Assembly (NCBI GenBank): GCA_051294905.1
Contig: CM119372.1
Span: 5,768,001-5,832,000 of the forward strand
Origin: Botryllus schlosseri
Lineage: Eukaryota
Length of the DNA stretch: 64,000 bases
Reading direction: 5' to 3'
The position numbers and the translations under genes are program-made. Below, one piece after another: positions 14,826 to 53,600 of this stretch. Below the pieces are notes generated by a model, which was not told the origin of the DNA, searched no databases, and worked only from the letters and a program-made list of their open reading frames with translations. The number at the start of each line of letters is the position of its first letter. Within the stretch, counting starts at the first letter, position 1.

Positions 14826-16676
14826 TATACGGCCGTAAACCAAACTTTACGCTGATTGGTCGAGAGACAGTGGCCATGGATACGACGCAGCAACGGAGGA
14901 CGCTGCATTTACCTAAGCCTAGTTGGCACTACGATGTATTCCTATAGCCGTGTAGACTGCATAAAAACGACAAGATTACAGTTAAATGTTTATTACTTCA
15001 TCAATAATAAAATTGGGAAAGGATGTTAAATATTTAGTAATGTATACTAAAATATAATGCCGAAATACTGCTGTGTTTATAAATGCTGTGTCACCAATGG
15101 CAATGAACTGGGGAAGATCAGATTTTTCCATTCATTTCCTTCCAACGCAAAGGTCAGGAAGGCTTGGGAATGCAGAGTAAGAAGGCAGGATTTCAAGCCT
15201 ACTTCCACAAGCTTCATTTGCTCCTCATCGCCGACCTCACTGCAGTTGCAGTGACTTAAAAAGCCCAGAAATCACAGTGAGCCGAGCTACAAGTCAGCAG
15301 CTAAAGACCCGATGAATCGCGAGCCGATGCATGAGAGAGTGGAAAGAATGTCAAAGACAAGAATAAATGCATTGATCAGTTCAAATACTGTCATGTCGTG
15401 GAGCACAAAGCCTTAAACAGGCTAAAAGCACCACTGTTGTGTACAATAATAATAATAATAATAATTTGCTACCACCACTTTTGCAAGGAAGATTTTGCTG
15501 CTAGTACATTATAGATACACCAATACAGTCACGTCTAAAGAGAGGTGCGATTCCCAGTCGCAATCTCCGTGGTGAAGCAGAAGATATGCACATTGCAAAG
15601 AGGCGGACCCTGAACTCACTGCCGTGTCAACTGTCTTCCTGCAATGTTGTGGATGCTGCACATGCGAATCTTACATTGTCATCTGGTGATCCTGATCTAG
15701 AATCGCCATCGTGTAGCCTTGAAATGGAATCTTCAAATCCATCACCTGAATCTTAGGGTAAGAAGCCAACGAAGTCAGTCATATGCAGATTAGCTACCTA
15801 TAAGCCCACAGGACATCAGAACAGAGATGATGTGCAGAATGGTGTAAATACATAGGGCTCTTCGACTCACAAGTAGCAATTTTGGTAGGGTTTTGGACTG
15901 CTTTGAGGGGAACAAGACAGCAAGTAATCCATATGCAACATCTCTTTTCAAATCACTTCAAGGACAGTACAGTATGAACAGGTATTCAATATTGTGGGGG
16001 TTATTATTGCACGAAGAAAGTGCCATTCAATACTACTAAGCATCACTCATGTGAATGTAGCAAAGATAGGTCTTGTTCTTTTTCCATATGGATATCTGGG
16101 TGCTTCACATGATAGAGAGGTTCTAGCTGAGCAGACCTCATCTGCCTTGGTGTGCTTGAGGTATCGTAACAGCACATGCGATGAGTTCATGAAATTTGAA
16201 ATGGGCAGAAATCACAGAAAAAGAGTTTTTATTTGACTGCTGCTAGATAATTACAAGTAAATCACTCTTATTGGCATCAAATTCAGGCCCAAATGTGAGC
16301 CACAAATAATCCTGCCTTCTTATACTCTGCCTTCCCAAGCCTTCCTGTCCTTTGCGTTGGAAGAAAATGAATGGAAAGATCTGTTCTTCCCCAGTTCATT
16401 GCCATTGGTGGCACTGCATTCATAAACACAGTAGTATTTCGGCATTATATTTCAGTATATGTTATTAAATATCTTATTTCCTTTCCGAATTTTAATATTG
16501 ATGAAGTAATAAACATTTAACTGTAATCTTGTCGTTTTTATGCAGTCTACACGGCTATAGGAATACATCGTAGTGCCAACTAGGCTTAGGTAAATACAGC
16601 GTCCTCCGTTGCTGCGTCGTATCCATGGCCACTGTCTCTCGACCAATCAGCGTAAAGTTTGGTTTACGGCCGTATA
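14826..16676. mobile_element. Fold-back non-autonomous DNA transposon with ~400-bp inverted arms, each containing a THAP-domain gene start
   Basis: Termini TATACGGCCGTAAACCAAACTTTACGCTGATTGG and its reverse complement. The left-arm ORF 15057-15254 (MPKYCCVYKC..FHSFPSNAKVRKAW..ICS) is a THAP zinc-finger pattern, and the right arm encodes a decayed inverted copy. No DDE domain seen. Confidence 0.8.
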
Positions 16677-23885: not shown

Positions 23886-26800
23886 ATGAATCTTACCAGA
23901 TGTATCATAATCGCTACAGTGCTCGTAGCGTGCGGAGAGTGGAACGCAGGTACGTCACTGTCATTCAAACATTTCTCAAATAGAGGTGTTAGCACTGTAT
24001 TGTGATAGAAGCAGGTGGCTTATAAACTTCCATTTAAACTTCAATTGGTAGAAACGTGGTTGGATATTTTTTGTTAGATATATTTTGCACTGGAAAATGA
24101 TTTTCACAAAGTGTTCCGCGAACGACGGTCTGCGAGAAGTTTACGAATCCGTTGGCTATTTCATGAGATTATTTTGAAACTCATTGCGTCAGACTGACGC
24201 TAAATTTTTCATACACCTTCTAAAAACCTATGTTCGATAACGTTGACATAAACTGTAAACCGATTGGGCACAAACAAAACATGACTAAATAACAGACTGC
24301 TCGGACCTATTGTAAAATTTGCTTAACTTTACTTATAACTTGAAAGTCAGGCGAATTTATGAATTTACGAAATGCAGTAATGTCAATACAACTTTCGTCA
24401 TAACTTTTGATGATGGGTATCATCGGACACACTCCTAGCGAAAAGAGTAAGTATTCACACCCAAATGCACAAAAGTATGGTACACGAAAACAGAAACTAA
24501 CGCAGAATTAATCGGGGTCATCGTACCGACCTGTATATCTTCCTACGGTACTACGTGCATGCATAATTGGGATTAACATGCCGTTTTCGATTCACATTGC
24601 AGTATAATACTAAGGTAAGTTCAGGTTTTGTGTCCCATGGGTGTACTGTATGGTTACCATATAGTCCTCCCGGGGCATATACGATAGCCTAAGTTATCGT
24701 AGCCCCCGGTCCGCCTGTATGAGTATTTGTACTCCGTTTCCAGGAATTGAAAAATGTCGTTCAAGAACGCTAAAATGTCCTCTTTTATAGCTTTGACAGC
24801 CGGGCGATTGTACAGGCACAAGTTAAAACGCCATAAATTACCCGAAATCAGAAATCTGGACGTTGTAGCAGCAGTCTAGCTGGAGTCGAGTCAACATAAC
24901 AGTATCACGTTAGAGCGGGTCTTTCGGGAGTAGAGTTGGTAGAATTACTTTATTTTCTTTAGTAAACACAGCTGCATTTCCTGTAAAGATTGTCAAATTA
25001 ACCGGTTTCTCTTCCGATGCCATAGATTGTGTGATTGGTAAAATGCTTCCTCTTGTCCGGACCTCAATATATGGTAACCATTGTTTATTTGTTTGTGGTA
25101 TTCATGGTGTTTGCCGACTACAACTTATTTACTCAATTTTAATTTTTCGATTTTCCATTTCCTGACATCTCCATTATGAGATTTGCTTCATATCTATATA
25201 TAGAATTTGTGCTATGCGGCAATGCAATACGATGAAATACGCCGCAAACTAACGTCAGATGAGATTTGTGTCGAAAATGGGAGCACTTGCAAATTTTCAT
25301 TCGCACGCATTATGAATGTTGTTGGGTGATGACTACAAAAAGGCTTTTACTTCAGTCCAGGCCTAATCATGGCACCTCATATTGCTTTCTAGTCTTTGTT
25401 GCCTTAAAATCTGCTTGACTATTACATAATAAGGTCTCTCCTTTTGCTTGTGACCTCTGGTGACAAATGAGGAAGTAAGTCGGAAATGAGGACAGCAGTT
25501 AGAAAGTACAATGTAGTTTTATAATTGTGAGTTTCTCTGGCCTATCATGTACCAGTTAAGACTAGGCCGAGGATTCCCAAGGGCTCCATAGACCTCTGGT
25601 TGATAAACCCTGACGACAATGGAGATTTGCAGTTTTATGCATAAGACAATAACTTTTACACACATTACCGGCGAGACATCTTTGAACATAACAAACGGGA
25701 TTATAACAGATGGATATCGCATTGGGAGTTCTTAATACAACTTGTTCAGTAACCTGTAACGATGGGTACTATATAAGCGGGGAGGTTACAAGTGTCGGGA
25801 TTCCTGGATCAAATGATACAAACAATGATTGTCGGTATAGCCTGAATATATTGGAATCGCGCAAATGTACTAGAAAAGCCGTCATTTGTGAGACGCACAC
25901 GATTCCAACTTGGTATTTCTGTATGGAACGCATCACTTTCCTATGCGTTTCGAATTGGTACGGGTAGCAACGACACTACTCTACTATATTATAATCGATA
26001 AATCCAAGTCACACTGAGTCGCGCAAAGCGTGAAGAATTTTTTTAAGTAGGATTAAAATCTCTCAGAGATTTCAGAACCAATTCAGATTGCATATTAACG
26101 ACCGCCAACACACGCTACTATAAATATGTGTAGGCGGCCGTATAATAGGCCTTATAATTACTTTTTTGCGGCTGCGTGCGGCCGTATGTCCGCAGGTTGA
26201 CCACTTCTGGCCGAATCGAAATAGAAACAAACAAGGCTGCAACGTATGGGAAATACTAAAAAATAATCAGGGCTTGAGGTTCCCGTACCACTATCTAGGA
26301 CAGTGATTCTCGATGACAGTGAAACTCGATCTCGAGTCCCTCTGGCTACGACCCTGCAATAATTATGTACAGTGCAATAATTAATATTATCTGGTAGGAA
26401 GTACCAATTCAAAATGTTGGAGCTATCGGAGCTACCAAGAATAATTATAGACAAACATCGCAAGCTGAACGCGTGTTAATTACATCCTGTCCTGCTCCAG
26501 AAGGAGCCCAAAAGACCATTACCAACTGTTGAATGATGAGGAGAAACATTTGCTGATGACATCACAAAAGAAATGTAATTTACAAGCTACGTATAGTTGA
26601 TATGAACAAAAACATTGTACTATATCGCACATCCGGTCAACCTGTTCTGAAGCATGAGCTTGTTTATCTATTGTGATGCGAGTCTGGTACACCCCAGTAC
26701 ACCCCATCCGAGTGGTACACCATTTAAACATTATGGTAAACCCTAGGGTGTAGGGTACACCCGGTTGAAGAACCCTGCATTATTTCATCCTAAAGAAAAT

Positions 26801-29800
26801 GAATTTCACAGCTATTACCTGCGAGACATCTCCGAACTTACCGAACGGAGAGATAGCAGACGGGTGCAAAAGTGGAAGTCTAATATTCACGACATGTCCA
26901 GCAACCTGTAATAATGGATACTACATCGGAGGGAATGAGGAGGTCCAATGTGTTTACGTACCTGGATCCAATGATACAAAAAATGTAGGCGAATGGAACT
27001 ACGGCGGCACAACGTGTACAGGTAACCAATATACAAGCAATAGAATTCGGAATATTTTATTCAATATAATCCATAATCCCCTCCTACGTGTTCGAAGACT
27101 GTCCATATGATCCTTATCGCTATCCAATCCACTTTAAAATGTTCTTACAAAAATCCAATAGAACGAACTGGGCCCAGCTGTACGTTGGAATCTCAGAAAT
27201 CATAGTAAGCGATATCGATCCACCAGGTATAACATATCCACTGTCCATATATGTCCATGTCCATACACCACAAATACTAAACCACAACTACGCCATCGTG
27301 GCTTATTCCACAAAATTATAGAGCCGAAGAAAATCTATGCATATAATATTTTGAAAAAATAATGAATGCTTGGTTTTTCTATATCTGCAAGCCTGCCTGA
27401 TATTGATTCCGCACGAACGCGTTTGAAAGTAGGATCAACTCGTCGGCATTCACTTCCGAACGCAAAATATTACTTCGGATTTACCAAATATTGATTTGGA
27501 CATCCCCGTTCGCTATTTAGCGTGCATATGTTGAAGGCCATCGAGTCTGACTGACGCTAAATTCGGCATTCATTCGATACCCGTGTATAGGACACTCATG
27601 AGTTGAATGTTTTCAAAATGTTCATGAACGTAAAATCATGCAACGACATGGTGCTTCGAGTGATTGGAAATTTAATTACTCAATTTAGAGCGATATGTGG
27701 GGAAGTGGGGAATTTCCCAAATACCTATATTGGTAATAAATGGTAGTAATTAGGAATATTGTGAACGTGAGGTTCATCTTCTCGTTCTGGTTGTGAACCT
27801 CAATAATTTAGAATAATTCACGTTCACAACAGAACCTCGGTAGGTTCTGCACTGTGAACCTTTTTCATATATTACAGTTTTCACTTCATTATAACATCTT
27901 TGCATGAAATTTATTGCATTTCAACTGCGGCCACTCTATGCATGGTGCTGGTAGCATAAAAACCAACACCAAACAAGCATGCACCTTGACAATCCCAAAG
28001 ATTTTACTTGATTTGTTGCAAAAGTTTGCTCGAAATATCCAGATTTCCGCTTGTGAATATCTAGTGACTCTCTGCTGTGAGATGGACCTGCAATCACACA
28101 TCATCAGGAGCAAAATACACTACATGTAGTGTCAGCGAATTAGGCTTATTCAATCCATCAATCGAATTGATATAGTTTTCTGATGTAAAAAAAAATCTAG
28201 CCGGGTACGGGTTCAATCTTGACCTCATATGTTTATTGTATCTTAAAAGCCAAATCCGTGCGATTGGGCTGCTGGCTACTGCTGTATAACTTGTTGATGG
28301 CGTAATATCGGTCACAAGTATAGAAACAATGTACACTCTGCTCAATATCAACGTAGCAATACCCAGACGCCGAATACATTGTCCTGTCTGGCCTAGAACG
28401 TCGGGGCGTAAGCTTATATCCTCTTGCCAGTCGTCGTCGAAATTGTTGGCAGAGCGAAGGAAGATATTGATTTTATGGGATTATTATATTATTGGATTGC
28501 CTCAGTTGATACATTTGGCAACGTTTAAAACGTCAATATGTACTTCAGCATTGTGGCATTATGTGGCCCGAGACGTCGCTAGGTATAGTGTACTGTGCAG
28601 TGTACATCAGAGGTCTCAAACTCAGATGTGCTCGCGGGCTAGTTTTCCAGTTTTGACGACGCCGCGGGCCGCAGAATTTTTTATAGGTATTCTATGTCTT
28701 TCCAAGTAGGCCTTATTTGGTGGGAATGAATTGTCCTATTGAAAGTGAGCCGATCCAGCAGACTAGCAGTAAACACACATCGTCAAAATGTGATTTACTC
28801 TTGTATCAATTTAGGCATGGCACGAAAAGAATCATCACATTTATAGTTTATACCTATTTGAATAGAATTGTTGTTGTACTTAATATATATTAATTATAAG
28901 ATATAGACACCATATGGGTGGACAAAGTATGATGCCATCATAAAAGCTATCGGGTTATAATTTTGCAGCTACTATGAATATTTTGAATTTAACAGATTGA
29001 TAATAGAGACTGATCCTGGTATCAAAACATTTTTAGGTTGAGCATTGTAATTCCAATCCAGGATTCGGGTATACTTCTGATAAGTAGGCCTAGGCTATTT
29101 ATTAATCTTAAGGCCAAATATCTTCAAATAATATAAATATATTAACGAATGTGTCCTAGTGATTGAAATGTCGGAACGCCGGACGGCCCATTGTTGTTAC
29201 ATCTATGGAGCGTACCATTGCCTTTAAGTAACCTTACATAATAACATGGTTTAACGAACAAAAATGTATAACTAACAGATTGCCAATGGTTTCCATAACT
29301 ACTTGCTAAGATAACGAAATACCAAGCTGCGACCTTCTCATCTATTACTGTTCCCCTGATACGCGATTAGTTGTGTTGCGTCCATGGTTCTAACAAATTC
29401 ACGGCATTCCGAGTCACTCCGAGTTCAGTCGAGTCATTTTCATTTTGCCATCGAGTTAGCCCGAGTCTGAGTATTTCTAAGAAAGCTCGCGTCCGAGTCA
29501 AACTCACAAATTTCAGTCACGAATCGTCTAAGGGTCAGGTTTTGTCATCATGAATTGGAGATGTGACGAAATAGTGAATCTTCCACTGCATGGTAGCGCT
29601 TGCATTTGATTTGATAGTGAAGTTTGATGAATAGTTCCAGGCTTTCGGAGCAATATAAGAGGGAATTTTCACTTTATATTGTCAAAATAATAAAAATCTA
29701 AAATGTCGTCGCGGGCCTCGTGTTTGAGACCTCTGGGTACATTGATATAGCCTATCACTTCAGTGAAATGTTGGGTTGGAATTAGCAATATGACGTCACT

Positions 29801-32673
29801 TGACGTCATGAGGTTCACACCATCCCTAGTAGTAATGTCAGTACAGCGTGCCTCATAATCTGTAACTACGGGTATCATCGAGGGGACAAATACATGCCAA
29901 CATGCAGTGTTTGCGACTAGGCGAGTAGTACAAATACTGCTGGAAAATGAGATGCTGATACTACATTAAACATATTAGTTGTTGTCTAATTCTACGCAGT
30001 AAATAGATATTACATGAAACCGAGTATTGTTATTTTTCAAAATATTTGTTTTAACGACATGGGTAAATATTGATAAGATTCATTGAAGACTTGACTACCA
30101 ACTGATATGTTATTTTTATTCCTCAATTTTTAATTTCACGTTTGTTGAGATCGTGATATTTCGATGTCCTTACATTTATATATAGAGATCAGAGAATTCG
30201 CAATATTTTATTTAATAGAAAATAAATTTCACAGCCATTACCTGCGAAACATCTCCGAATGTACTGAACGGGATCATAGCGGATGGATGTGGTAGTGGTA
30301 GTCTCTTAAATACAACATGTACAGTAACTTGTAATGATGGTTACTATATTAGCGGGGAAGAAGAGGTCACGTGTATCGATACCCCTGGATCAAATGATAC
30401 AAACAGTGAAGGAGAATGGGACTACGGCGGCACAATGTGTACAGGTATCCTACAAACAATGAAAAGTCGCATTGTTTTATTCAATATATAATCAATTCCA
30501 CAGCCATTACTTGCGAAACATCACCGAATGTACTGAATGGGACCGTATCGAATGGATGTGGTAGTGGAAGTCTCGTAGATACGACATGTACAGTAACTTG
30601 CAATGATGGCTACTATATTAGCGGAGATGAAAAGGTTACGTGTATCGATACGCCTGGATCAGATGATACTAACAGCGAAGGAGAATGGAACTACGGCGGC
30701 ACAATGTGTACAGGTAGCCTACAAACAATGGAGAAGTCGCACTACTTCATTCAATATATAATCAATTCCACAGCCATTACCTGCGAAACATCACCGAATG
30801 TACTGAATGGGACCATATCGAATGGATGTGGTAGTGGAAGTCTCGTAGATACGACATGTATAGTAACTTGCAATGATGGCTACTATATTAGCGGGGATGA
30901 AAAGGTTACGTGTATCGATACGCCTGGATCAGATGATAATAACAGCGAAGGAGAATGGGACTACGGTGGCACAACATGTACAGGTAGCAAGCACAATTGA
31001 TTAGTTATTTTGATGTTGCTATAATCAGAGTACTATGTTCACTATTCTCGGTGTACTGAAATAATAGTTATAAAATGAATTCTACAGCCATTACATGCGA
31101 TACATCTCCGTTCGTTTCGAACGGGATTATAGGAGATGGATGTGACAATGGTAGTTCCCTAGATGTAGCATGCCCAATAACCTGTAATAATGGTTACTAT
31201 ATTAGCGGGGATGAAGAGGTGACGTGTGTCGATAAACTTAAATCAGATGATACGAACAGTGAAGGAGAATGGGACTACGGTGGCACACATTGTACAGGTA
31301 AAATCTTAATTATAAACACGACATGGGGGTATGGTTCTCCTCATACTTGCTTATATTCTGTCCAATTGTACCGGTGTTATATTGTATTTGAAATATTACA
31401 CTGTGGCTGTTTGCGTGTTTTGAAATATATACAGAATGTCCGAGTACAAACTTCAGGTCATATAAAGCCATTGACACTTTCGAATTCCGAATTTCGAACG
31501 CCGACCAATAAAAGAGTTGGAAATTTTAATAACGGTCAGATATTGCCTCACACACAATCATATAGTCGGAAATGACGAGCAATAAAGACCGCCACATTCG
31601 CCGCCTTAGTGTGAAGATTCATTTGCATTTGCAAATAGACTGGAAGACGAAAAACTTCGTCCCACGCTAAGTTGCTGCTATTGATACAGACATGGTATCG
31701 TATATACGACAACCTAAATAGTCTGTAAATAACATTCATTAAAGTAAGTTTTCCCCCCATGCTTAATGAACGCGGTGACCTCCCATGCAGGCGATATGTA
31801 TGACAAGAAATCATGTTTGTGCGTGTATGATATTAGTTCTTTTGGGATTGTATGCACTCATATTTCAAGAATATATACAGGCCAATGTGACTTTGAATTG
31901 AATGGCCGACGTCCGAAACAATGCTCAAAATACACTATTTGTTGTACAATTATGGCCCATTATTTGGGATCGTAAATTCTATTATCTCGAAGATGTACCC
32001 GAAGATCGATTCAGGCATGCGTGGTAGCCAATACCGACCACAGTCAGCCAGGTTATTATGACCGCAGTCATAAGGGGGCGCGAAAGCGGATTTATCCGCA
32101 ATATATCCGCTAATGGAATTAAACATATAGATAACGTAAAATGAAATCGTAATCTAGTAAATAAATGCACATTAAGCAATAAAATGTGACTCAGAATCAC
32201 GAGTAATATTCGATTTTAACGGGATTCGACTGTATATATCTTATTTTATTTAGGTCCTGGCAAGTCTTACGCATGGATTGCTGCGATTATAGTACCCATT
32301 GCCCTCATCGCGATTACGCTGATTGGATATTATTTCTTTGGAAGGTATAGCCGATATCTGACTATGTTACCGAATAAGTTCGCACGCATCTATCGCAAAT
32401 TTATTATTCTTGCCCGCCATTGCAGATCGACGCAGGGATCTCGAAAGAAAAGTAACGGTGGAAAGCAGGCCGGTGTGATTGGTTTGGACACGACATATGG
32501 TATTATATATATACTTTATCCGCTACAAACTGTAACCGAATTTATTAAACCAATTAACAGAAAATGTGCAGCGTGGTGACCTGTATGAAACCGTAATACA
32601 CGAAGACAAGTATGAAAACGTAATAGACGAAGACAAGTATGAAACCGTAATAGACGAAGACAACATCAGCTGA
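23886..32673 (+). CDS. Type-I membrane receptor: signal peptide, five six-Cys Sushi/CCP domains, TM, tail with four YE[N/T]V motifs (about 463 aa)
   Basis: Leader exon 23886-23949 (MNLTRCIIIATVLVACGEWNA, G|GTACGT). 210-nt phase-1 Sushi exons at 26812-27021, 30235-30444, 30504-30713, 30774-30983, 31088-31297. TM exon 32254-32344 (SYAWIAAIIVPIALIAITLIGYYFF). Tail exons 32426-32499 and 32561-32673. All junctions are GT-AG with compatible phases; the summed length of 1392 nt is an open frame ending in TGA. Confidence 0.88.
25661..25824 (+). pseudogene. Decayed Sushi exon in intron 1 of the five-Sushi gene
   Basis: Aligns by eye to the intact exons (TTCSVTCNDGYYISG..PGSNDTN). It has lost the acceptor AG, has Cys1->Gly and indels, and is cut off by a repeat starting ATGATTGTCGG (also seen near 36980). 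Confidence 0.85.
25825..26778. mobile_element. Non-autonomous DNA element (GTACACCC family), right part
   Basis: Colinear with about 36980-39031 and 50928-52478; ends in GTACACCCGGTTGAAGAACCCTG. Confidence 0.7.
27751..29828. mobile_element. hAT-type MITE (TAGGGATGG family, reverse orientation) with nested MITE 28608-29735
   Basis: Perfect 8-bp TSD GTAGTAAT; reverse complement of 44539-45453; the nested element has TIR CAGAGGTCTCAAAC..GTTTGAGACCTCTG. Confidence 0.85.
30235..30983 (+). repeat. Tandem ~270-bp exon-plus-intron duplication
   Basis: Three Sushi exons with homologous 59- and 60-nt introns; exons 30504 and 30774 differ at 9 of 210 nt by hand count. Confidence 0.95.
32583..32663 (+). 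repeat. Coding tandem repeat, 3 x 27 nt
   Basis: gtatgaaa(c/a)cgtaata(c/g)acgaagacaa x3, encoding YE[T/N]VI[H/D]EDK. Confidence 0.95.
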
Positions 32674-35600
32674 TGCTATAGCAATGTGTGTGTATCTTGT
32701 CACCGACTTCATCAAGTGGCTCCCTAAGTCCGGCATTCAATGGTGTGCTCTTCATATCCCACCACGGCTCATGAAACATGATATTATATGACGCTATACA
32801 ATACAGTTACAGTGTTATAAGTGAATAGTATATTTATATTGAAATGAACCCGATTCAACCCGTTTCAATATGAATATACTATTTAATTGTATATTGAAGT
32901 TCTATACCTCCAAGAAGCTCTTCAAGTGTTATAAGCCTTGACGTGCTGCGATATCTCTTCCGCAATAGCCTAGTTTCGCTTTCTTTTTCTATACTGTCTT
33001 CTTTACTTTCCTTCAGTGTGCATGCCTCCTCTTTACATCGCCTAGGCCAAGGTGGGTGTCTGATTCCATAGACAAATCCAAGTCGCTTCGACATCTTCCT
33101 GTCTATTCATTGTATCGCATTTTTGTGGTGTATCGAACTGATAAAATTGCGAATGAACCAATGATGATGATGGTGATGATGAATTATGATACTCGCTATC
33201 CTCCCAGATCCGTGTTGAGCAAGCTTATAGGCTACACGCTTTTCTTCCTCGGACATGATTAGTGCGGAATCATGATTTGAATGGATTGTGGATATCGAGA
33301 ATCTATACTGTGTTTAACATTTGTATTACAGCTATGTTTTTAAATCTATACGTTATAATTCAAAGGAGTAAAATTCTCAGTTAACCTAATAGACCCAATA
33401 GGAAGGAGAATGATTTTTTTTTCAGAAAGTGCCATAAGTCTTGTTGTTTGTGGTTAGGTTCAGAGCTGTAATCATCCTTCATTGTACCATATAGACAGGC
33501 AGGGAAGTCAGATTTGAGCTCGAAAAATAGTACAATTTATCTAGTGTTGATTTGTCCTTTGTCGTGTGTCCATCCCGTCCAATTTAAGCCTCCCAGTCTG
33601 GTTAGTGGTTTGGATGCAGTTAGTGAACTGATATAATTGTCGCGGTGGATGCCAGCTTAAAAGATATAGGCCATATATACTATGGGTATATATAGATATA
33701 GCCTATATATAGAAAAAGGCCATATATACTTGAATGTATGAACAATAAACATCTCTGGTCCGATCGGTTTCATTTGTTTTTATGTAAGTTCGATTTCATA
33801 CTCATCCCATAGATAGAGCTTGCAAATTAGCGATCCGTATACGAGATTATGCCAGGATAATTACAATCGTGAGTTTCCGCGCTACACATACACGCTTTAT
33901 TTCCAGGATATTTCAAGCTCTATACAAATCTTTTAAATGTAATACAAAAATCAATATTCGCAGCGAAGTGAAAGCTCGAACCGCGATGCGTAATCAGTAG
34001 GGCGATTTTTCTAACCTAAAATACGGAAGATTTTGACCTAAAAATCAAAACTTTGACATTTTTTGGCCTTAAAAAACTATATTTTGATCAAATTTTGACT
34101 CCTTGTATGTAAATTAGGTGTTATTTTCCCACTTGGTATTGGAATTGTACTAGTTATCTTCATTTCTGGTTGCAACTGTCAGTCCTTACGAAGTAGTTTG
34201 GCCTATGGAAAAACGTTTTGGACTTTAAAACTGAAAATTTTTGCACGAAAAAACTATATTTTCACGAAATCTGGACCTATGAAGAATTCCAGTAGTTACA
34301 TCACGCATTATGGTAGAAATACTAAAAATTTGTTGTAATACAACGAAAGATACTTTCTTACATTCTCAGGTAAAAATTGTATGTCGTTACTAAGTAGCTT
34401 GTCAGTTAGTATATTGCGGTACGTTGAGCATAACATCAAGTCAGCCTATTTGTTTCATTTGCCCGTTTATGATTCACAATGAGCAGACAATGTGGCGTCT
34501 ACATCGGTAGGCCTATAAAGTAGGCTACAAGCTGTAAAATGTCAGGTGATAAGTTCATCCATAGCCTTTATATAGGCCGTGGTTCATCGACAGTGCAAAC
34601 ATTTATGATCCAAATGAAATGCGGGTAGCAAAAAGAAAATTTACTTTGTAAACAAATTTGACAGTTTTTTGTCCTAAGGCTACAATTTTAACAAAATATT
34701 GACTTATGTCAAACAAAAAACGCCTTAGTAATCAAAGTCTCTTGTTGGCAATGCTTGGCTATGATTACGATACGTCCTCTTTGAGGAGGATTTGTCCTCT
34801 TTTTTGACTTTTTTGGAAAGTGTTCTCAGAGGACGCCTAAAAGTCCTCTTTCCTGATAATTTGTCCCATTTTTTGAAAATTATGGTTAAATGTAGGTGAA
34901 AATTCGACTGAGATACACGAAACCAGTACTCAAGTAACGTTCCGGCGGGTATTGGTAGAGTCGAGTCGCAAAGTTGACTTTTATTTATTTTTTGTCAAAA
35001 AGTGTCGTCTTTTCAGGTTCCCAAAATATGGTAACCTTACTTGGCTTACTTTTACCTAACTATACTCGTGAGTAACTGTGTGCAATACATGCATATGTAT
35101 GTAACTCGCATCATACGAACAACTCGGAATATAGCTGCATTGCCGGACTAGTATGTTTGACGAACACATGTATGGACGAATAATTATGTGTTCGAAATTA
35201 CTAATTTACCGCTATTCATTTGCATAGAATGGATTTTCTTGTTTCTGCTTATACTCAAGTAATTTGTTTGACTGCCCTGGACAAACATCATTTGTACAGA
35301 AAAGCGAAATATTCTACAGCAAGGGTAACCAACCTTTTGGAAACCAAGACCTACTTCTTGGGAACTGAATAATGCGACGGGCTACCAGTTACTCCAGCCG
35401 CTGAAACCCTTCTCCGCTTCGATTTTCAAAACTCTTTCATTTTAATATTTACTGCTTCCACCGCGTACGATTCAGTTGGCTCTTGCGGGTTACCGGTGGG
35501 CGTGGTCACCGTGTTGGTGACCCCTGTGCTACAGCTTGATACACTTCGCCAACTACCGCAATCGAGTATGTTCGCCATGTCTGCCAAAATACCAATATTC

Positions 35601-41658: not shown

Positions 41659-44600
41659 ATGTCATCGAGAAGGCTATTTGTTGCAATTTACATCACTATA
41701 AGATATATTGACTCATCATCAGGTAAGGCGTTGAGTTCGACGATAAATGCTGTTTCAATGATCGAATAATTGTCTCAACACGTCGTTATGAACGTTTTAT
41801 AATTCGTATTTTATGTTGCAATATTGCCATATCATATATAGGACTATATATGGACTGTGAATAACACTTAAATAACCATGGTAATCGTTCCCCGCTGTCG
41901 GCATATTTCCACTCTGCCATTCTTTGCATATCACAGTAAACTCGATTACGAATACAATAACTTTCACGATCGTTTAAAATCCAAACTTTCGATCCCTCAA
42001 CCAATACGCATAAAATCACGGGATGAAATGCTCTATATGTCCACGCACTAAAGTGTAGGGACTGGTGTAAACCTTTTAATTTCGCAGAGACATTGCCTCA
42101 CTACAGCTCACTTTGAAAAGCTATAAATGTGTCGTCAGTGGATCCGTAGTAGGGGAAGTGACGTGTGGTCGCCGGTCGGGGAAGGCAAGTGAGGCATTTT
42201 CTCACCTGTCGCCAGGATAGGTAAACGAAAATTGTGACACCTTCAATGATTATAACACCAATATTTATGTGTATTTACCATCGATGTTCCTGAAGGACTA
42301 CTTTTGAAACATTTTAACATACAAATTCACAGAATTTGCATATTTATTGTTCAAAAGTATAACGCGAAAGGAATAGTGAGGCTCAGGTGTGGCAATGACC
42401 GACCAAGCCTCACCTGTGATAGCGCAATCAATCACGGACAGATCAGAATTCGTAATAACTGGTATTAATAGAACGTTGTTGTCGCAGTGATACCGAAAAT
42501 CTAAACATGAACAAAACACCAAATCACCAGAGTCTCTACAAAATCGGAATGTGAAATTCCTCAATGTTACGTACAATGACAGCGCAGCTAGAGAGACACT
42601 GATCAGGTGAAGCACAGATGGATTTGTCCCATCTGCTGTTAGCTAACAATCCGACAATGCGGTATCAACTATTCGCAACTGATGGTGTAGTCATATGAAT
42701 CGTTTAAAAGCGACGGCCAACATGCCCTGCAGAGCAAACACATTCCCTTGTTGATATATCTGTTGCGTATTTTCCATTCATAGGCTACCTATACCTTCAA
42801 TTGTGGATATGTAGATTGTGTAGCACCTTCCTGCGTAGCCTGCTTGTGAAGAGTGGTGATGTGATAAGAAACGAGTCGCTAACTGAATCACCTACCATTA
42901 TGGGTATATTTGTATATCTGACTCTAAGTCAGGGGTGTCAACCATCCGGCCCGCTAGACGATTTCATCCGGCCAGCGAAGCAATTCGGGATAGATTGAAA
43001 GTTCTTGTATTATCCAGCAAATTTCTAGGAAATTTCGAGATTTTTATTGTGAAATAGGCTACTTCCATTAAGTAATCCATGAAGACAGGAAATTTCGTAC
43101 ACGTACGTAGGCCACATTACAACCATCCGACAGTGGTGTTGTAGTTTCACTCTACTCACCGTTTGGTGACATTGACGAGAAGGTATAAAAATTGCACACT
43201 GGATTCCGAGTTTTACCGAGAAATTCACATACAATTAGTTATCCCCAAAAGCGACAGCTCAAGTGCCGAACCGTTGCAGGTTCCATGGATAATATAATAG
43301 TTCCTCAAAGATATAATTCAAATATTCTTGGTGGCGAGGCTGTATCCCTTTTGACTAGTAAATGTGCCGGCCTCCTTAAAACCCTTATCGCGATTTAATA
43401 ATACTGAACGAAATTCGGTTAATTTGTTGTGTTCCTCACAACTCATACGCAGGGTAACGCCATATTACGACTAAGACATACGAAGCATAGAACGATACCT
43501 ACTTCTATCGCCGTTAGTGCAACTTTTTGCGGTTTTTAACTGTATTAAACCGGCCATTCACAGTCATTTTGTCAATTCCGTTGTTTGCGAGTACCGGCGT
43601 TGCTAGAAAGGACCCTCCATTGACACCCAATATAATATATTGCTTGATAATAAAGTATTCAAGTGAAAGACAAGTTCACCGATACGTGCGTGTTTTAGGT
43701 AGATGGTTCCTCTATATGTGCACTTTGTGCAGTTAGGTACACACTCCTGCGCAACTTCGGTCACAACTCAGTCATATAAAACGAAAAGTTGCATATGAAT
43801 GCTTCGCTTTTATCGACTAAAAAGTATTTCTGTTTTGGTATCGGAGTTATACTGATACATAATGAATCTGTTGCTGCAGTTTTAAAAATCATCATATATT
43901 GAAATCCGAAGAAGAGGACACCGTTCAAAAATTCTAATATCTCCAGTAACGGAAATAAAACTGGTGATTTTCGACCAATAATACTGTGTTGACTAAAAAT
44001 GTAATCTTTTCGACTCGACTCCGGAATTACCCACATTCACCCCTTTTTATTGGTGTTGATTAAAAAAAAAAGGTCATTCCCATCTGCTGAAGTAGGTAAC
44101 GTGACTATGATTCGGTCGGCATTGTGCGTATTGTATAAGTACGGCTGCTGTCTACAAATTCAAATCTCCGCCCGAATCTAAGATTTTAATTTGTTGTAAA
44201 CATATGTTATGTTTATTGTTCATGTCATTGGTCACTATATAATCAAATAAATGATTAGGTTTCGCTTATCCCAATTTTACTATAGTGTGGCTCGCGAACG
44301 GATTCGTATGTTGAATTCGGCCCGGCTCTAAACTAAATGGTCAGTGCCTCACCAACCACGAACCTCACCACACCTCACTGAGTAGAGGAGAGGTTATGCG
44401 ACATTGTCACACCATTTCCTTTCCTGGTATCCTACAAATTTGTCAGCCAAGCCAGATCCTTCCTAAGAACCCATGGGGATACCAAGAACTTATCTGAACA
44501 CCAGACTCAATGTTGTTATCAATACGAATAATGTAAGCTAGCGATGGTGTGAACCTCTGAAAGGTTCAGGTTCGTGTGAACGCGAACTTTTTGAAAGGTT

Positions 44601-47600
44601 CTGTGTGAACGTGAACCTCATGACGTGACGTCACGTCATATTGCTAATTCCAACCCGACATTTCAGTGAAGTGATAGCCTATATTAATGTACACGATATA
44701 CCGAGCGACGACTCGCGCCACAAAATGCCACAATGCTGAAGCAAGCCTACATATTGACGTTTTTAACGTCGCCAAATGTATCAACTGGGGCAATCAAATG
44801 ATATAATATTCCCATAAAATCAATATCTTTCGTCGCTTTGCCAACAATTTCGACGAGGACTTGCTAGGGAATATAAGCTTACGGCTTAACGGTCTAGGCC
44901 AGACCGGACAATGTATTCGGCGTCTGGGTATTACTACGTTGATATTGAGCAGAGTGTAAAACGGGTTTTTATACACTTGCTACCGATATTACGCCATCAA
45001 CAAGTTATACAGCAGCAGCTAACACCCCAATCGCACGGATTTGGTTTTTATGACACAATAAACATAAAAAATCAAGATCGAACCCGTACGCCTGCTCGAT
45101 ATTTTTTATATCAGCCAACGTTATCAGTTTCATTGATAGGTTTCATAAGCATCATTCGCTGACTACCGACATGAAGTGTATTTCGCTCTTGATGTTGTGT
45201 GATTGCGGGTCAGGCTCACAGCAGAGAGTCACTAAATATTCACAAACGGAAAGCTGGATATTTCGAGCAAACTTCTGTAACAAAGCAAGTAAAATTTTTG
45301 AGATTGACACGGAGTTGATTTTTTTTATGCTGCCAGCCAGCCATACAAAGATGTTATAATGAAGTGAAAATTGTAATATATGAAAAAGTTTCACCGTGCA
45401 GAACCTACGAAGGTTCGTTTGTGAACGTGAACCTCATGCTTACACCATTCCTATAAATTACGCATCTCAGCGGAAAATGAGTTTCCAGGTGACAAGATTT
45501 GAACCAATCAACAACATCAACATACACCAACAAAGAAGATCTGTACACGTGGTTATGAATTGCCAAAATGAGAACATGAAGACTAAATTAAGATAATATT
45601 AAAAACATTTCACGGGACACATGTGGAAGTAAACAATTGAATTTTATTTTCACAGCAGCTGCTATTTGTACCAGCCCTCCGACACTTCCGAACGGAGCAC
45701 TTGATGAAAATTGCAACTTGGTCTCCTTCGGAGCCGCATGCAGCATAACTTGTGTTTATGGCTACTATGTAAATGGCTCCGGAAATGCCATTTGCATCAA
45801 AATTGCGTCTGCAGATGAACCTAACGAAGTGCGGGGATCGTGGAACACTGCAGGAACGACATGTACCGGTACTAAAACACAGTGATTATTATTAAATAGT
45901 TTTAGGTAATTTTTAATTTTACTTTCATCAGCTGTAAAATGCAACACGGACCCAACGATTCCGAACGGGGCCCTTGATAGCAGCTGTAGTGACGGCTATT
46001 TTGGGGATACATGCAACATAACGTGTGTACATGGATACTATGTAGATGGAAGAGGTTCGGCAATTTGCGACGATGTTAGTCTGACAGATGATACTAACGA
46101 AGAGGGATCATGGATTACATCGGGAACATCGTGTACAGGTCTAACTTCTATCCAATATTTATAAATTTCAGCTAATGTGAAATGTTTTTCCTTTGATCAG
46201 CCGTTAAATGCTTCACCGACCCAACAATTCCGAATGGGGTTCTTGATAGTAGTTGTAAAATGAAAGCTCTTTGGGTGATACATGCAACATAATATGTGCA
46301 TATGGTTACTATGTAGTTGGTAATGGGTCAACAATCTCCGACGACAGAGGTATATCGCGCGGAGCGCAAAACCTTTTTCAGATTACTGCAGCTTCCCGCC
46401 CCCTTCAGATGCTTTCACGCCACACCAAGGGGGCGCCCCGCTCCGTCGAGTAATTTCTGCGGTAACTGTGATTCCAATATAGGAGAGAACATTTGATCCC
46501 GGGCGATATTATTTTAAGTCAGTATTGGTCTCTTCGCATTAGCCTTATATAGCATACCTCGCACGATGTCGAGTTCGAGATCTACCCAGTTCCCTTCAAA
46601 CAGATATCCACCCGGTTCCCTTCAAACAGATCTTTAACGTGACTGCGAATAACTGCTTGCGTCCTACCAAATCGCTTCAACCGCCGGCTCATAATTAATC
46701 GCATTACGGAAAGCCGTTTAGAACTCCAGACGCCGAACCTTTCATACAGGACTGTAACGGCCGCACACCAAATCCCCCAATTTGGGGGGGGGGCGAGCCC
46801 GAACGGGACCAAGAATTATGTATTGAATTAACATAAAATATATAGTTTTATTTAATTTACCCAACTTTTTCAAAATATTCTCGCGCAGTGCGCGATTTAA
46901 TGGGGTAAGATATCTTGATAATTTGGATACCCTACCCAAATACGCATGATAAAAAGTTAACAACCGCTGTTTTAGAGGTTCGCACCATCCCTAGCTCTCA
47001 GCACTTATATAAGTCATCCATCTACGACGATTGATATCTAAATATTTATGGGATCACGTCGCCGTTGCTATCAAGTTCAGTCAATACGAAGGCGATGCGA
47101 TGCGAATTAGATTTGAATATCTCAGAAAAAATGTGCTGGTTGTCGGAGCACTATTGTTGACATTGTTTATGAACATAATCGCTACCCGAATTACGGGTAT
47201 TAGTTATACTTGCTGTTCAATCTGCGCTCTCATTCCATTCATCGCAATACTGAAAAGCTTTAAGCCGAACGCAAATAAATGTGATATTAGAATTGGTCTT
47301 GTAGTATCGTCTACTCTCCAATGGTAAGTGGTTTTAGTTCATTTATATTCGCTTGGACCCTTGACAAACATTGTACAGTGCTAGTAGTCATATCACAAGG
47401 TGTCAACTGTCTGTTTGTTGTTATCGAATTGCGGAATGGATGACTTCTTTCTGTGGGTTTGTAATCAAAACTCACAGGAAAATCCGTTTCAAAAGTTACA
47501 ACTATTCGACAATATCTGAGAAGAGAATCCGTGATAATATCCGAATTGTATCCGACTGCCACAAAATTGTCCAATACCCGGTCCGAATGCTATCCGAGTC

Positions 47601-50600
47601 CGTCCAATGCTCATCACTGCTCCAGGTACGCGTAATGGTTGTTGTGAGGATGATGTCTGCCGACCGTGGTCGTGTAGTCGTTGTGAAAGATATTTTTCGA
47701 TCCGTTCAAGATAGCGTCAAAAACCTTTTTAGTCAAAGGAGCCGCGATTACCCTAATTTCAATCCACTGTGACGTGGCCATTGAAGATTTGCTACGTCAT
47801 GACTGAAAAATGAAATATTTTAAACAAGGATCATTTTTTAGGCATGTTTGTTTTAAATTTATTTGTGTTTTAAATGCGATTCTAGGTACAACTTCTGCTC
47901 AATAATTATAGTTACGGAGTACATGAAATATTTTTTTGCTTCATCAGCTGTAAAATGCAGCACCGATCCAACAATTCCGAACGGGACGATTGATCGCCAA
48001 TGTAATGTCGGGTCATTTGGGGATACATGCAACATAACGTGTGCAGCTGGTTACTATGTAGACGGTGAAGGGTCAGCAATTTGCGAAGATGATAGCTCGG
48101 GAGATGACACTAATGAAGAGGGATCATGGAATACAGCTGGAACAACGTGTACAGGTATAACTTTCATCCCATTATTATAGGTACATCTTACATAGGGTGT
48201 TTCTTTGACAGCTTTAAAATGCAGCCCCTATCCAACAATTCCGAACGGGGCCTTTGATACTAGCTGTAATAACGTCTCTTTTGGGGACACATGCAACATA
48301 ACGTGCGCAGATGGATACTATTTAGATGGCACAGGATCAGCAATTTGCGATGATGATAGTCCGACAAATGATACTAACGAAGACGGTTCATGGAATACTA
48401 ACGGAACAACGTGTGAAGGTATAACTTCTATCCAGGGCTTCGGAGCCGAAGCAGGAGCTAGATCCGGATCTCTATATAAAATTCATCTGGAGAGGGAGTC
48501 GGAGCTTGCGCCGTTTATTTGAAAAGTAGCTCCGGTTCCGATGTATTTCATAAGTTGCTATATGCTATACTGGCTGAATTGTTGCCTCGTTGGCGCTACC
48601 ATTTCTAACTAAGCATGTCCAATTGTCCTTACGAGTGCGCCAAGCCTGGATAGGCTAGATATGACGCGACTTACTCCGTAATTACTGTATTGTGGTCATT
48701 CATCAGCACAACACCGATGACCATGCAATTTTGCGTTTCGAAAAGTAGTGATCACTATGCATTTCATCTCCTTTATTGTCAGAACGGGAAACTCGTGCAC
48801 GCTATTTACCCCATGAACCGTGAGAGACTGTAGCTCAACCTTCTAAGGAATCACGTCACCGTAGAGAGGTGGAGCAAACAGTTCAAGACGCTACTGGCGT
48901 TAAAAGTCGGAACCACGTATACTTGCTGAACTTGGTAGAAATCCAACCAAAACGCTGGGAAGGAACTGGCATTGTTGTTGATATACTGCACATGGCACAT
49001 CAACACCACCAGTAGGTCATGTCAGTAAGACATGATGTAGGAGTGGCAACATAGTCCGAACACGCCACCAACATGATGTCCGAGTGGAAACGCAGTACGA
49101 ACATACCTCAGACATGATATCCGAGTGGCAACATAGTCTGAACACGCCACGAATACAATTTCCGAGTAACAGCGTAGTCCGAACATAACCCAGACATAAC
49201 AACACAACCAAAACATAAAATTTCACATTTTTTTCTGCTTACCATATAAAATTGTTAGGCTGTCAGTAGAGATGAGCCCCACCAAATTCGGCTCGATTCT
49301 AACCACTACAAGCAAAGTTATTGCAGTAGAAATTTTTCTAATTCTATAATTTTATAATAATATACCTTTTTTCACATCGATAGGCCCATGTGGTTTGATT
49401 TCAAAGACTATACTCCATGTCGTTTCGACACCTTCCTATCTTCTATCACCATCTTGTGCTGTTTTTGAAAGGATTTATACTCAGCTCAATAAACCATACT
49501 TGTGCATTGTGCAAACTAATGGATTTTCAAAATACGCAACTTGAACTACTCAAAAAATAGTAGACAATTCATTAGATGGTAGTTTTTTTCAAGACAGCCA
49601 TATTCCCATTTTTTTTTATCGACGCTGCCTAACTTTCGATCAAGTGCGTGTTCAAATTCTTCTCTTTTGATTTAGGTAAATACAAGACCGCAATCGCAAC
49701 CATGTTACTTATAATTGTGATAGCTGGTCTCGGATTTCTAGCGCGTTGCGCCCTGATTAGAGTTCGAGGCATTCCAGAAGACTGCGCAGCAAACTCAGAT
49801 GTCGTTTCGATGGATCGAGTTCAACAAAACACTATGAGTACTGAATGTACGTTGGCAGAGAACGATACAGAAAGACGGCGCGAAGAAGCTTTGGCAAAAA
49901 GAAGTATCGGTGAAATCGATGAAATGATAGATGTGAAAGTTCAAGAGAACCATGAACAGGCTTTCTCTCTCCAAAATCGACCAAGCATGATAAAAAACGA
50001 CAATACTTCACGCGTTGATTCGAGCCCTGACGCTAAAGTTGACCAAGAGACTCTCGGAGGTAAAGAACTTCAATACAGACTTGAATAACATAACCATATC
50101 GAAATATACCCGATATTTTCGGCTGATATTCGTCAGGGGCAAATAAATTTCTGTGACTAGTAGAGAATGTACACGTGAACATCATATTGAAATAAACCCA
50201 ATATTTTCGGCTGTCACTCGTCAGAATCGTAAAGAACTTTCTATATCAATAATCGTGTCACCAAGTATGATATCAATGACCTAAAATTTCAAACAGATGG
50301 CTTAAACTCAATGTACTGTTTTTAGATCATAAAAGTCTATCTGTTGGCACAAACTAGGTAGGTGGATTTTGATAAAAGTCGAATCAAAAGCGGATAAAAA
50401 AGAAAAAAATGACGGCGGCCTTTGAGACGACGCGAAATCTTTGGTCTCAATAATTGTTCGCAAGAGTAGAATGATTCATTAAATGCTTGCCGATAGCGGA
50501 ATTCATGGCCATCGCCTGTTCTGATTCGATCTGCTTGGGATGAATCAGGGGTGACCATTGATCAGAGTGTGATGCGAGTGTGCTAATAAAGCTGACTGAC

Positions 50601-53600
50601 GCTCTGTTTTATGCGGCACTGCAAATGTTGGGTTGTTCTTCCCTCGTAGCCGCGATCGCAGTGGCACTTATATTCAGGGTTGCATTCAAAACAAGTAGTG
50701 TTTTAAAACACACTGTCTTAAGACATGTTATAAACGTGTTTTTTGTTAAATGTGATTATTTTTAAATGTGTGATTATAACATAATTATGTAACTAAATAC
50801 TTTCGGACAAAACATGTAGTATCCTAATGTGAGCCTACGGACGGTTTGCACCTGATTTACCGTCGACGTATACGATGTGGAGTGGCCCTCGAAATCGTCG
50901 TCATTTCAACAGTTATAGCATGTAGATCAGTGCTCTTCAACCTTTTTCGTCGTGGTACACCCTTTTAACGTCTACTCGAAAATCTTACACCCCTGACCAG
51001 ATAACTCACTGATTGCGTATAGTAAGACTAATCCAGGGGTGTTCGACCTCCTTGTTATTCACAGTCGTGATTCGATGCCATCCAACCGCCACATTCTGGC
51101 GGAGACTGGTCATGGCCAATCTGGACGTCATACTCATGTTAAATGTTAAAAAAAGGAAAGCTATTTGAATTCTCTTTCCAATCGCGTGAAGCGCGAAAAA
51201 ATTTTGATTCTAGATTCGTACGCCTGCAGGTTGTCCTCCACTGGCATGTTGAAATATTGATTGAACAAGGCTGCAACTTATTTGAAATGCTGAATGCTAA
51301 TCAGGGACCGAGGTTATCGGACCACCATCTAGCACAGTGGTTCCCAAATGCGACCCCCCAGAGACACCCTGACTAGGCCCCTGTAATGATATACACTGCG
51401 CTGTTTATAACCATCTTGCAGAAAGCATTAATTCAATATTTTTGAGCTATCGTGGTGGTTTCCTCGAGAATCATTATAGACAGCTATAGCACACACATGT
51501 CAACCCTATCCTTACAGTACCTTACCAGCACAGTCTCTATATGAACATATTCTACGACATTGCACACCCGGTCAACATGTTTCGAACCATAAACTTGACT
51601 GTTTATTGTGATAGCTATACTCATCGGTCTATTTCAAGTCGGATCTGGTACACCCCCGTACACCTCATCTGAGTGGTACACCATTTTAAAATTTTGGTGG
51701 TTCTCAACCGGGAGTCCGCGGAACCCTGGGGTCTGCGGAGCATTTTCAGGGGGTTCGCGAAGCCTCAAAATAATTTGTATTGTTTTTAAATTCTGAAAAT
51801 CACGAGGCAGCTTAGCTTCATTACTAGTAAAACTCCAGAGCTCACATCAACAGAATGGCAGTCTGAGATGAAATAACCTACTCTGCAGACTATGACTATC
51901 ATTTTAATTGCTAAGTTGCCAATAGCTTACTGACACAAACATTTTCCTGTTCAGAGATGTTTTATTGGGGATTGTGGAGAAACAATTGGATTAGTAACGT
52001 CAATCACGGCTACTTCAAAATGTTTACAAAAATCCATTTTCTCCTGTGATATATATAACCATTTCCCGTAATAACTTCAAGATAAGCTGCTAGATAGAAA
52101 TGACCGGGCTTGACGTTATAGTATATGTCCATTAATTTTTTTTGACAGATTTGGTGTCATATTTTCAAGACACAACCTATTTCAAGAAAGGCAATTGCAG
52201 AATTCGCTTCGAAGTAATAAAAGTCAACTCAATTTCCGCATGAATAGTATGATCGTATTTTTAAGAAAAGTTATTTTGTTGCTGTTTATCACTAAGCCTA
52301 CAGTTATCATTTGTAGACTGCTAGACATTTGACGATTGCACGTTAACTGAGTTAAATTTGAACTAAAACTTTGTGGGGGTCCGCGGGGGTCCGTAACGGT
52401 CCGAAAGGGGTCCGCGAAGACAAAAAGGTTGAGAACCACTGCCCTAGATTGTACGAAACACCCAGTTGAGCAGCCCTGATGTAGATTATAGATCATTGTT
52501 ACTCCGTTGTTGCTTATTCTAATTTTTCAAGTATCATTTAGATTAAAATGTTGTGTGTGATTTACACTGCGATACAATCACGAGGTTCATGTTCTGTTAT
52601 CGCGTACCGCCTTTGAGGCGTGAATGCAAACTCTTCTCGCTAGGATTGTTCAATACTTTGTCAAAATGCAGGAAATGTGGCATGGAGCAGCACTCTAGTC
52701 TTCACTGTATCGCAACACTTACTGACCGTAGACTCCAATTGCTTTTCAAAGCTGACCAAAGTAAAAGTCGCGATAATAGCAATTCCGAGGCAGAGGGCAA
52801 TTGTCCTACTAGTGGAATCGATGAAATGGATGAAGTTCTCCCAGATGCAGACGAGGGGGGATATATCGAGCACGTGGACATTCAGGGTATAGTAAAGCCT
52901 GAACCGACGGATGGCGCATACACGGTCTACAATAACGCCGGACTTCTTGATAAAATTGAAGGTATGAAATTAGGTACAGCTCTACAAATAGGGTTGCATT
53001 TAAAACAAACGATGTTTTAAAATATTTGTTTAAACCACGTCTTAAACAATGTTAGAAACAAGGGCCTTTTCTTAAAAAAATGATTTTTTGAAGTTTTTTT
53101 AATTATGCCATAATTGTGTGAATACTGTCCAAAAAACATGTTGTATGAGTCTACGGACAATTACCACCCGATTTAGCCGACGTATATCGATATGGAATGG
53201 TTGGAAATAGCTGATTCAACAGTTATAGTACAGATATTTCGTCAAAGGAGCTATATTTACCCTATATTTTCAATTGCCAATGTCAATCTATTATGACGTC
53301 ATAACTGAATATCCATGACGTCATGACTTAAACAAAAAACAAAGCAAAAAAAACAATAAAAACATGTTTTAAATTGGGGCCTTGTTTTAAACATGTCTGT
53401 TTTTAATTGATTTTTGTTTTAAATGCAACCCTATCCACAACCATATCAGTACTAGGACTTTGCAAAATCGAGTTTAATCGAATGATTCGAATTTAGTGTT
53501 ATGCGTGGAGAAAACAGTCGAGTATCACCCATGATAACGTCAAATCAGTATGAACCACGTGGAATGTTCTAAATATGTCCCACAAAGAATGCAATGCCAG

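Follow-up and report, generated by a model that had tools for sequence, protein, structure and literature searches.

Receptors with sushi (CCP) modules and receptors with tyrosine motifs have already been described in ascidians. In Botryllus schlosseri, the FcoRs are clustered type I receptors with sushi modules and one to four core-1 motifs (YxxI/L/V), and multi-tyrosine tails are already published for them, with FcoR26 for example having an acidic one with YENV; the core-1 motifs are of unknown function, and how unrelated receptor families gain tyrosine motifs is, for ascidians, an open question (PMC12582321). By description, Ciona vCRL1 is a sushi-containing, spliced and variable ascidian blood-cell receptor and the ITAM-bearing hemocyte glycoprotein of Halocynthia an ascidian tyrosine-motif receptor, with no phosphatase link or repeat-built tail described for either in the available portions of these papers (PMC9265791, PMC5465252). 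The hemITAM is defined as YxxL after acids at -2 to -4, with a dimer bridged by Syk (PMC3576117, PMC12582321), and the acidic triad, which stands before one tyrosine in CLEC-2, Dectin-1 and CLEC9A, governs phosphorylation in CLEC-2 (PMC3576117). The Styela clava protein XP_077966639.1 / XP_039266285.1 ('RPTP F-like', an automatic name) carries six copies of a six-cysteine sushi module with an acidic loop (49-57 bits). LAT, LAB and LAX are without a large ectodomain.

Here we describe a gene with a four-tyrosine tail (gene A; B and C are its paralogues, and D and F are further genes with related sushi modules) that resembles each of these in part. With the Styela protein it shares the sushi type, a homologous membrane segment and a YENV near the membrane; gene A differs in carrying four tyrosine motifs and none of the three Ig domains, the lectin, FN3 or the two phosphatase domains. 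The FcoRs differ in their Ig-Sushi-Ig-Ig architecture and in being mostly paired with a fester-family gene (chromosomes 5 and 11), whereas gene A has sushi modules only (PMC12582321). CLEC-2, Dectin-1 and CLEC9A are C-type lectins that form dimers with a single YxxL each, as opposed to four YxxV per chain in gene A (PMC3576117). LAT, LAB and LAX likewise present several Grb2-type sites on an acidic membrane-anchored tail, up to three YxN compared with two in gene A, and no sequence kinship is claimed (PMC3291652). Searches of open-access full text, which leaves out most subscription papers, listed no paper that describes gene A, a sushi-bearing receptor phosphatase of ascidians or copies of such a gene without the phosphatase. 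A term search of the sequence file of PMC12582321, in which a line break could mask a match, found neither YAWIA nor YETV.

Gene A lies in the window, by which we mean the whole stretch of 64,000 nucleotides analysed, and is a real spliced gene for a predicted single-pass cell-surface receptor that carries at most five sushi modules. A cellulose synthase of this genome finds its best match in Styela clava (96%), which places the host among the ascidians, likely the styelids, with Botryllus a plausible candidate. The nine exons of gene A encode 463 aa in a model that stays open throughout: a signal exon, five sushi exons of 210 nt in phase 1, a membrane exon and two cytoplasmic exons (Table 1). 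The signal exon is identical to those of B and C at 45 and 46 of 64 nt, respectively. Sushi exon 1 alone gives no Pfam Sushi match; an X9 contig covers part of it. Homology of the degenerate sushi copy stops at the start of a dispersed repeat.

Table 1. Features of gene A, in window coordinates.
Feature	Position	Strand	Properties and basis
Signal peptide exon, predicted first coding	23886..23949	+	21 aa, phase-1 donor; motif scan
Degenerate frameshifted sushi (CCP) exon copy, probably unused	25650..25828	+	tblastn match over two frames
Sushi (CCP) exon 1	26812..27021	+	210 nt, phase 1-1; tblastn 65% to CCP3; AG/GT flanks
Sushi (CCP) exon 2	30235..30444	+	210 nt, phase 1-1; tblastn
Sushi (CCP) exon 3	30504..30713	+	210 nt, phase 1-1; Pfam PF00084 E 4e-5, over cut-off; atlas features agree
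Sushi (CCP) exon 4	30774..30983	+	210 nt, phase 1-1; spliced directly to membrane exon
Sushi (CCP) exon 5	31088..31297	+	Intact; Pfam E 0.006, under cut-off; splice flanks
Transmembrane exon	32254..32344	+	91 nt, phase 1-2; both joints seen
First cytoplasmic exon	32426..32499	+	74 nt, phase 2-1; ends with first tyrosine codon; both joints seen
Last coding exon	32561..32673	+	Tyrosines 2-4; stop codon 32671-32673; joint in X5, X9

Reads and contigs of four runs (X5, X9, X10 and X23) were placed on positions 24000-33600, with the signal exon outside this span; X23 consists of true RNA reads, X9 is RNA by guess and the kind of X5 is not on record. Four X23 RNA reads, as well as X5 and X9 contigs, cross the joint 30983/32254 (GT..AG), and two X23 RNA reads, again with X5 and X9 contigs, cross 32344/32426 (GT..AG). 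A preliminary description of this DNA had held that the splice 32499/32561 supports the gene model, and this joint (GT..AG, 61-nt intron) is indeed present in contigs of two of the four runs (X5, depth 10.8; X9, depth 8.2), with none among the raw X23 reads, about 6% of which were read. X10 contains none of the three joints. The sushi-to-sushi joints and the signal exon are predicted, and sushi 5 is skipped in the joints shown, besides which there are 42 weaker ones. The one bulk RNA run shows little expression of gene A, with a depth below 1 over the tail.

Three further observations concern the transcribed region. The 60-nt intron between sushi 3 and 4 (30714-30773) is in frame and free of stops, so that its retention would leave the protein open, and unspliced contigs run over neighbouring introns. 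An X9 contig at 26899-27017 fits sushi exon 1 in its 3' part only and has 106 further letters unplaced; it is perhaps a divergent allele or a paralogue. Lastly, a high-copy transcribed repeat at 32863-33300, about 190 nt past the stop codon, dominates read depth there.

The cytoplasmic tail has 62 residues, 14 of them acidic, and its tyrosines fall at cytoplasmic positions 25, 34, 43 and 52, which confirms in the spliced frame that the four are exactly nine residues apart. A reading of the last exon in another frame, which would have spoken against the tail, does not apply: the frame set by the splice is the only stop-free one of the three. The first motif had been said to form only across the 32499/32561 junction; the splice holds, while the first tyrosine codon itself (32496-32498) lies wholly within the upstream exon and the codon after it is the split one. 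Downstream, the 27-nt tandem repeat reported before is plain at 32583-32663 on the forward strand (period 27, 3.0 copies, 94% matches), its score of 148 standing far above the best array scores of 38-61 in 20 dinucleotide shuffles of the window. Near identity of the units, also claimed, is true of units 2-4, which agree pairwise at 25 of 27 nt, and fails for unit 1, which spans the intron and matches the others at 13-15 of 27 nt, mostly in the first 12. A 15/27 match for unit 1 has a chance of about 0.002, with the agreement falling mostly inside the motif itself. With units 2-4 near-identical and unit 1 diverged, one old duplication followed by two recent ones is probable. The three near-identical units differ at three sites, each difference changing an amino acid and none falling at Y, E(+1) or V(+3), and the 27-nt unit is in frame. 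DNA and protein searches of the assembly found no paralogue of the tail, and the tail exon is single-copy. The suggestion that copy number tunes signal strength has so far found no support: the single contig that spans the array (run X5 record 15, 32560-32771) has no gaps, and partial contigs over it (X9 record 23, X10 record 8) are also gap-free, although contigs drop rare variants and this evidence on repeat number is thin.

The ectodomain and membrane segment of gene A point to an origin in a receptor tyrosine phosphatase. Gene C, at G000 C2 5970600-6014685, some 180-210 kb further along from gene A, has homologous exons for a signal, sushi, three Ig domains, a C-type lectin, FN3, a membrane segment and two phosphatase domains, the first of which has intact HCSAG and WPD signatures. 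This predicted receptor phosphatase is orthologous to the uncharacterised Styela protein, of which one model (XP_077966639.1) includes six sushi, three Ig, lectin, FN3, membrane and both phosphatase domains; with the full architecture in a single Styela model, the long form is older than this cluster. Between A and C lies gene B (G000 C2 5849879-5894421), which matches C collinearly, in blocks of 69-90% nt identity, as far as the membrane exon; it has no phosphatase and ends in a predicted two-exon acidic tyrosine tail that contains YEN. The first Ig exon of B is interrupted by a repeat element of about 510 bp with stops, several copies of which lie nearby, and B may therefore be dead in this assembly.

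First, the membrane segment of A aligns with scores of 75 (C), 68 (B) and 53 (Styela), compared with a maximum of 44 among 71 control membrane segments, none of which reaches 53 (the C5 row, in the wrong reading frame, was disregarded in this control). Second, nine of the first ten aligned residues of the membrane exon are identical between A and C, and the intron phases after this exon are the same in A, B and C (exons of 74, 65 and 68 nt), with the cytoplasmic exons of B and C picked among splice-motif candidates, not from RNA. Third, all five sushi modules of A group with modules of C, B, D and F in a single clade of 17 members (95/97), in a tree of 92 rows (the 87 of 102 genome matches that came close to full length, and five of six Styela modules) whose bootstrap is not fully settled. 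On these alignments, the signal, sushi and membrane exons of A very probably descend from the phosphatase gene. The first YENV of A may likewise descend from the juxtamembrane tyrosine of the phosphatase, as the Styela YENV at cytoplasmic residue 30 aligns with the first motif of A at 25. Similarity of the tail alone is not significant, being equalled in 157 of 1000 shuffles against Styela and in 153 of 1000 against C; a YEN motif is absent from gene C itself, and the presence of YENV in the unrelated FcoR26 tail means that the motif can arise independently.

Gene A itself is no receptor tyrosine phosphatase, a candidate rejected because its stop codon follows a short tail. The tblastn search with the Styela protein found no phosphatase domain at gene A, and none of the 150 PF00102 matches listed lies within or close to the window. 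The span of gene A likewise showed no match to the Ig or FN3 exons of the phosphatase, in a search whose Pfam part covered the introns from sushi 2 onward. Membership in the FcoRs was also rejected, on architecture, as the transcripts join sushi 4 directly to the membrane exon with no Ig in between.

The sushi module of A occurs widely, with at least 91 matches on three contigs (the 150 best of 195 candidates scored). A homologue search with one sushi exon returned ten candidates, none at E 0.001, which is weak evidence. In a profile search of 1.84 billion representatives, three of the 150 proteins listed reach at least 35 bits for this type of sushi module. All three come from Styela clava, one being an adhesion GPCR and the other two 'selectin-like' models that lack a membrane segment, and none has the layout of gene A. 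The Styela adhesion GPCR XP_039258803.1 (4777 aa) contains the module 52 times; found on a GPCR, a phosphatase and short receptors, the module has been reused across receptor kinds.

We postulate that gene A is an offshoot of the phosphatase gene that lost the enzyme, and that repeated copying of its juxtamembrane motif produced an SH2 docking tail, a LAT-like scaffold; we consider the chances of this evenly balanced. A copy of a sushi-Ig-lectin-FN3 receptor tyrosine phosphatase would have lost its mid-ectodomain and both phosphatase domains, and its juxtamembrane YENV would have given rise to a second unit and then to two further 27-nt duplications. In the cell, a ligand bound to the sushi stalk would cluster the receptor, a Src- or Syk-family kinase would phosphorylate the acid-preceded tail tyrosines, and Grb2-type adaptors could dock on both YxN sites, leaving the remaining ones to other SH2 proteins. 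The tail would thus serve as a small, multivalent scaffold of the LAT kind that comes with its own sensor, and paralogue C, the phosphatase, would be the likely counterweight. Src, Syk, Grb2 and GADS are present in Botryllus (PMC12582321), and LAT and SLP-76 are given as missing in ascidians in the available portions of two papers (PMC12582321, PMC12065747). Among the 61 SH2 matches in the genome, the four examined included SHP2, Csk and Crk SH2 exons and none named as Grb2 or Syk, and a tandem-SH2 locus had no match at E 1e-25.

A broader version, in which one phosphatase gave rise to a paired system with an inhibitory enzyme copy and truncated copies whose activating, repeat-expanded tails grew from the juxtamembrane tyrosine of the phosphatase and replace LAT, strikes us as doubtful; the observed basis for pairing A with C is their common sushi clade. 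If true, it would let one read how the tyrosine tail of an immunoreceptor was born from an 'eraser' gene.

The likely donor, intermediates and amplification step lie together in one gene cluster, and the units are similar enough to be counted. Should the tail dock Grb2-type adaptors, it would be a candidate for LAT-like multivalency without LAT in ascidian cells and would provide a natural series of one to four motifs in which to relate motif number to signal strength. If the repeat is neutral slippage, gene A is an ordinary lineage-specific duplicate. Gene A is in any case more interesting for its ancestry than for its motif.

Slippage is the first of the alternatives to be weighed: the repeat would be recent, in a truncated, decaying or near-neutral duplicate, and the tail would do little. 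The cluster is rich in broken sushi exons and insertions, the tail is without a paralogue in the assembly and weakly expressed, and the differences at all three variable sites of the units change amino acids, as this reading would have it. We nevertheless regard it as unlikely, given a 463-aa model that is open throughout, three joints spliced in up to three samples, and an in-frame unit whose variable sites spare Y, E(+1) and V(+3).

The remaining alternatives turn on the class of the motifs, for which we used the patterns Yxx[LI]-x6-8-Yxx[LI] for the ITAM, the standard consensus [SIVL]xYxx[IVL] for the ITIM and TxYxx[VI] for the ITSM, and Yxx-hydrophobic (Yxx[VILMF]) for sorting signals. None of the four tail motifs is a canonical hemITAM ([ED][ED][ED]xYxxL), Val standing at +3 in all four. 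A full acidic triad (-2, -3 and -4) precedes the last tyrosine only, the others having two, one and one of the three positions acidic, so that a triad with YxxV occurs in one of four. The ITAM pattern is absent from the tail even with Val allowed, as the spacer is 5. There is no ITIM match and one to the ITSM, a six-residue pattern and a weak match; Asp stands at -2 in the three repeated units, where a hydrophobic residue or Thr would be expected, and the amplified part is not the ITSM. The Grb2 motif pYxN (PMC13714419) has two sites in the tail, and YxxV, and with it the FcoR core-1 pattern, fits all four motifs. Of the preliminary labels, therefore, the ITSM match of TTYENV and the Grb2-type YEN stand, while hemITAM-like is weak, fitting the acidic triad at one tyrosine and nothing else, with YxxL in none of the four and a spacing one short of the ITAM.

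A hemITAM- or ITAM-like Syk activator, in which the two SH2 domains of Syk bridge adjacent phosphotyrosines, is quite unlikely on this evidence. The one full triad at -2 to -4 is of the kind that governs CLEC-2 phosphorylation (PMC3576117), and Syk-family kinases and hemITAM receptors exist in Botryllus (PMC12582321), but YxxL is found in none of the four motifs, the arrangement YxxV-x5-YxxV falls below the x6-8 of ITAMs, and gene A is a type I sushi receptor, not a C-type lectin. Both receptor classes were rejected for gene A itself, the hemITAM for want of YxxL and for four motifs per chain instead of one, and the ITAM for its spacer of 5. Distinctly improbable is an inhibitory or switchable tail that would recruit SHP2 through the ITSM and neighbouring YxxV sites, substituting a recruited phosphatase for the lost one: the tail has its ITSM match and the genome an SHP2-like gene, yet ITIMs are absent, and both Asp at -2 in the repeated units and an ITSM outside the amplified part speak against it. 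Least probable are sorting signals on a receptor that is internalised or serves as a decoy and so takes ligand from the phosphatase, for although all four motifs fit Yxx[VILMF] and the sushi clade is common with C, one such signal is usually enough, and upstream acids with two YxN suit use by kinases and SH2 domains better.

The neighbours of gene A seen in the window are sushi and Ig receptors. One, at 41659-52960 on the forward strand, has a signal exon (41659-41722), sushi exons at 45667-48414 (four intact, one frameshifted), and, near 49678-50058, an exon for membrane segment and tail that has no tyrosine motifs; another acidic exon may follow near 52745-52960. At 1884-5473, on the same strand, lie Ig-domain exons with a membrane exon at 5362-5473, and eight sushi exons lie upstream, before the window. 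Long inverted repeats at 59245-61701 (532 bp at 98%) and 14826-16676 (369 bp at 94%) are probably transposon ends.

Elsewhere in the genome, tyrosine phosphatase exons (153 matches) form large clusters at G000 C4 3.2-5.0 Mb, C6 19.5-20.4 Mb, C8 7.4-7.7 Mb and C12, and SH2 exons are likewise grouped, on C5 near 13.0-13.2 Mb and on C10 near 27.1-27.6 Mb; a joint expansion of the phosphotyrosine machinery is possible. At G000 C5 4421900-4435300, on the reverse strand, five sushi exons and a membrane exon are accompanied by a long Pro-rich exon in which five tyrosines have acidic flanks, and these exons may belong to one adaptor-like gene.
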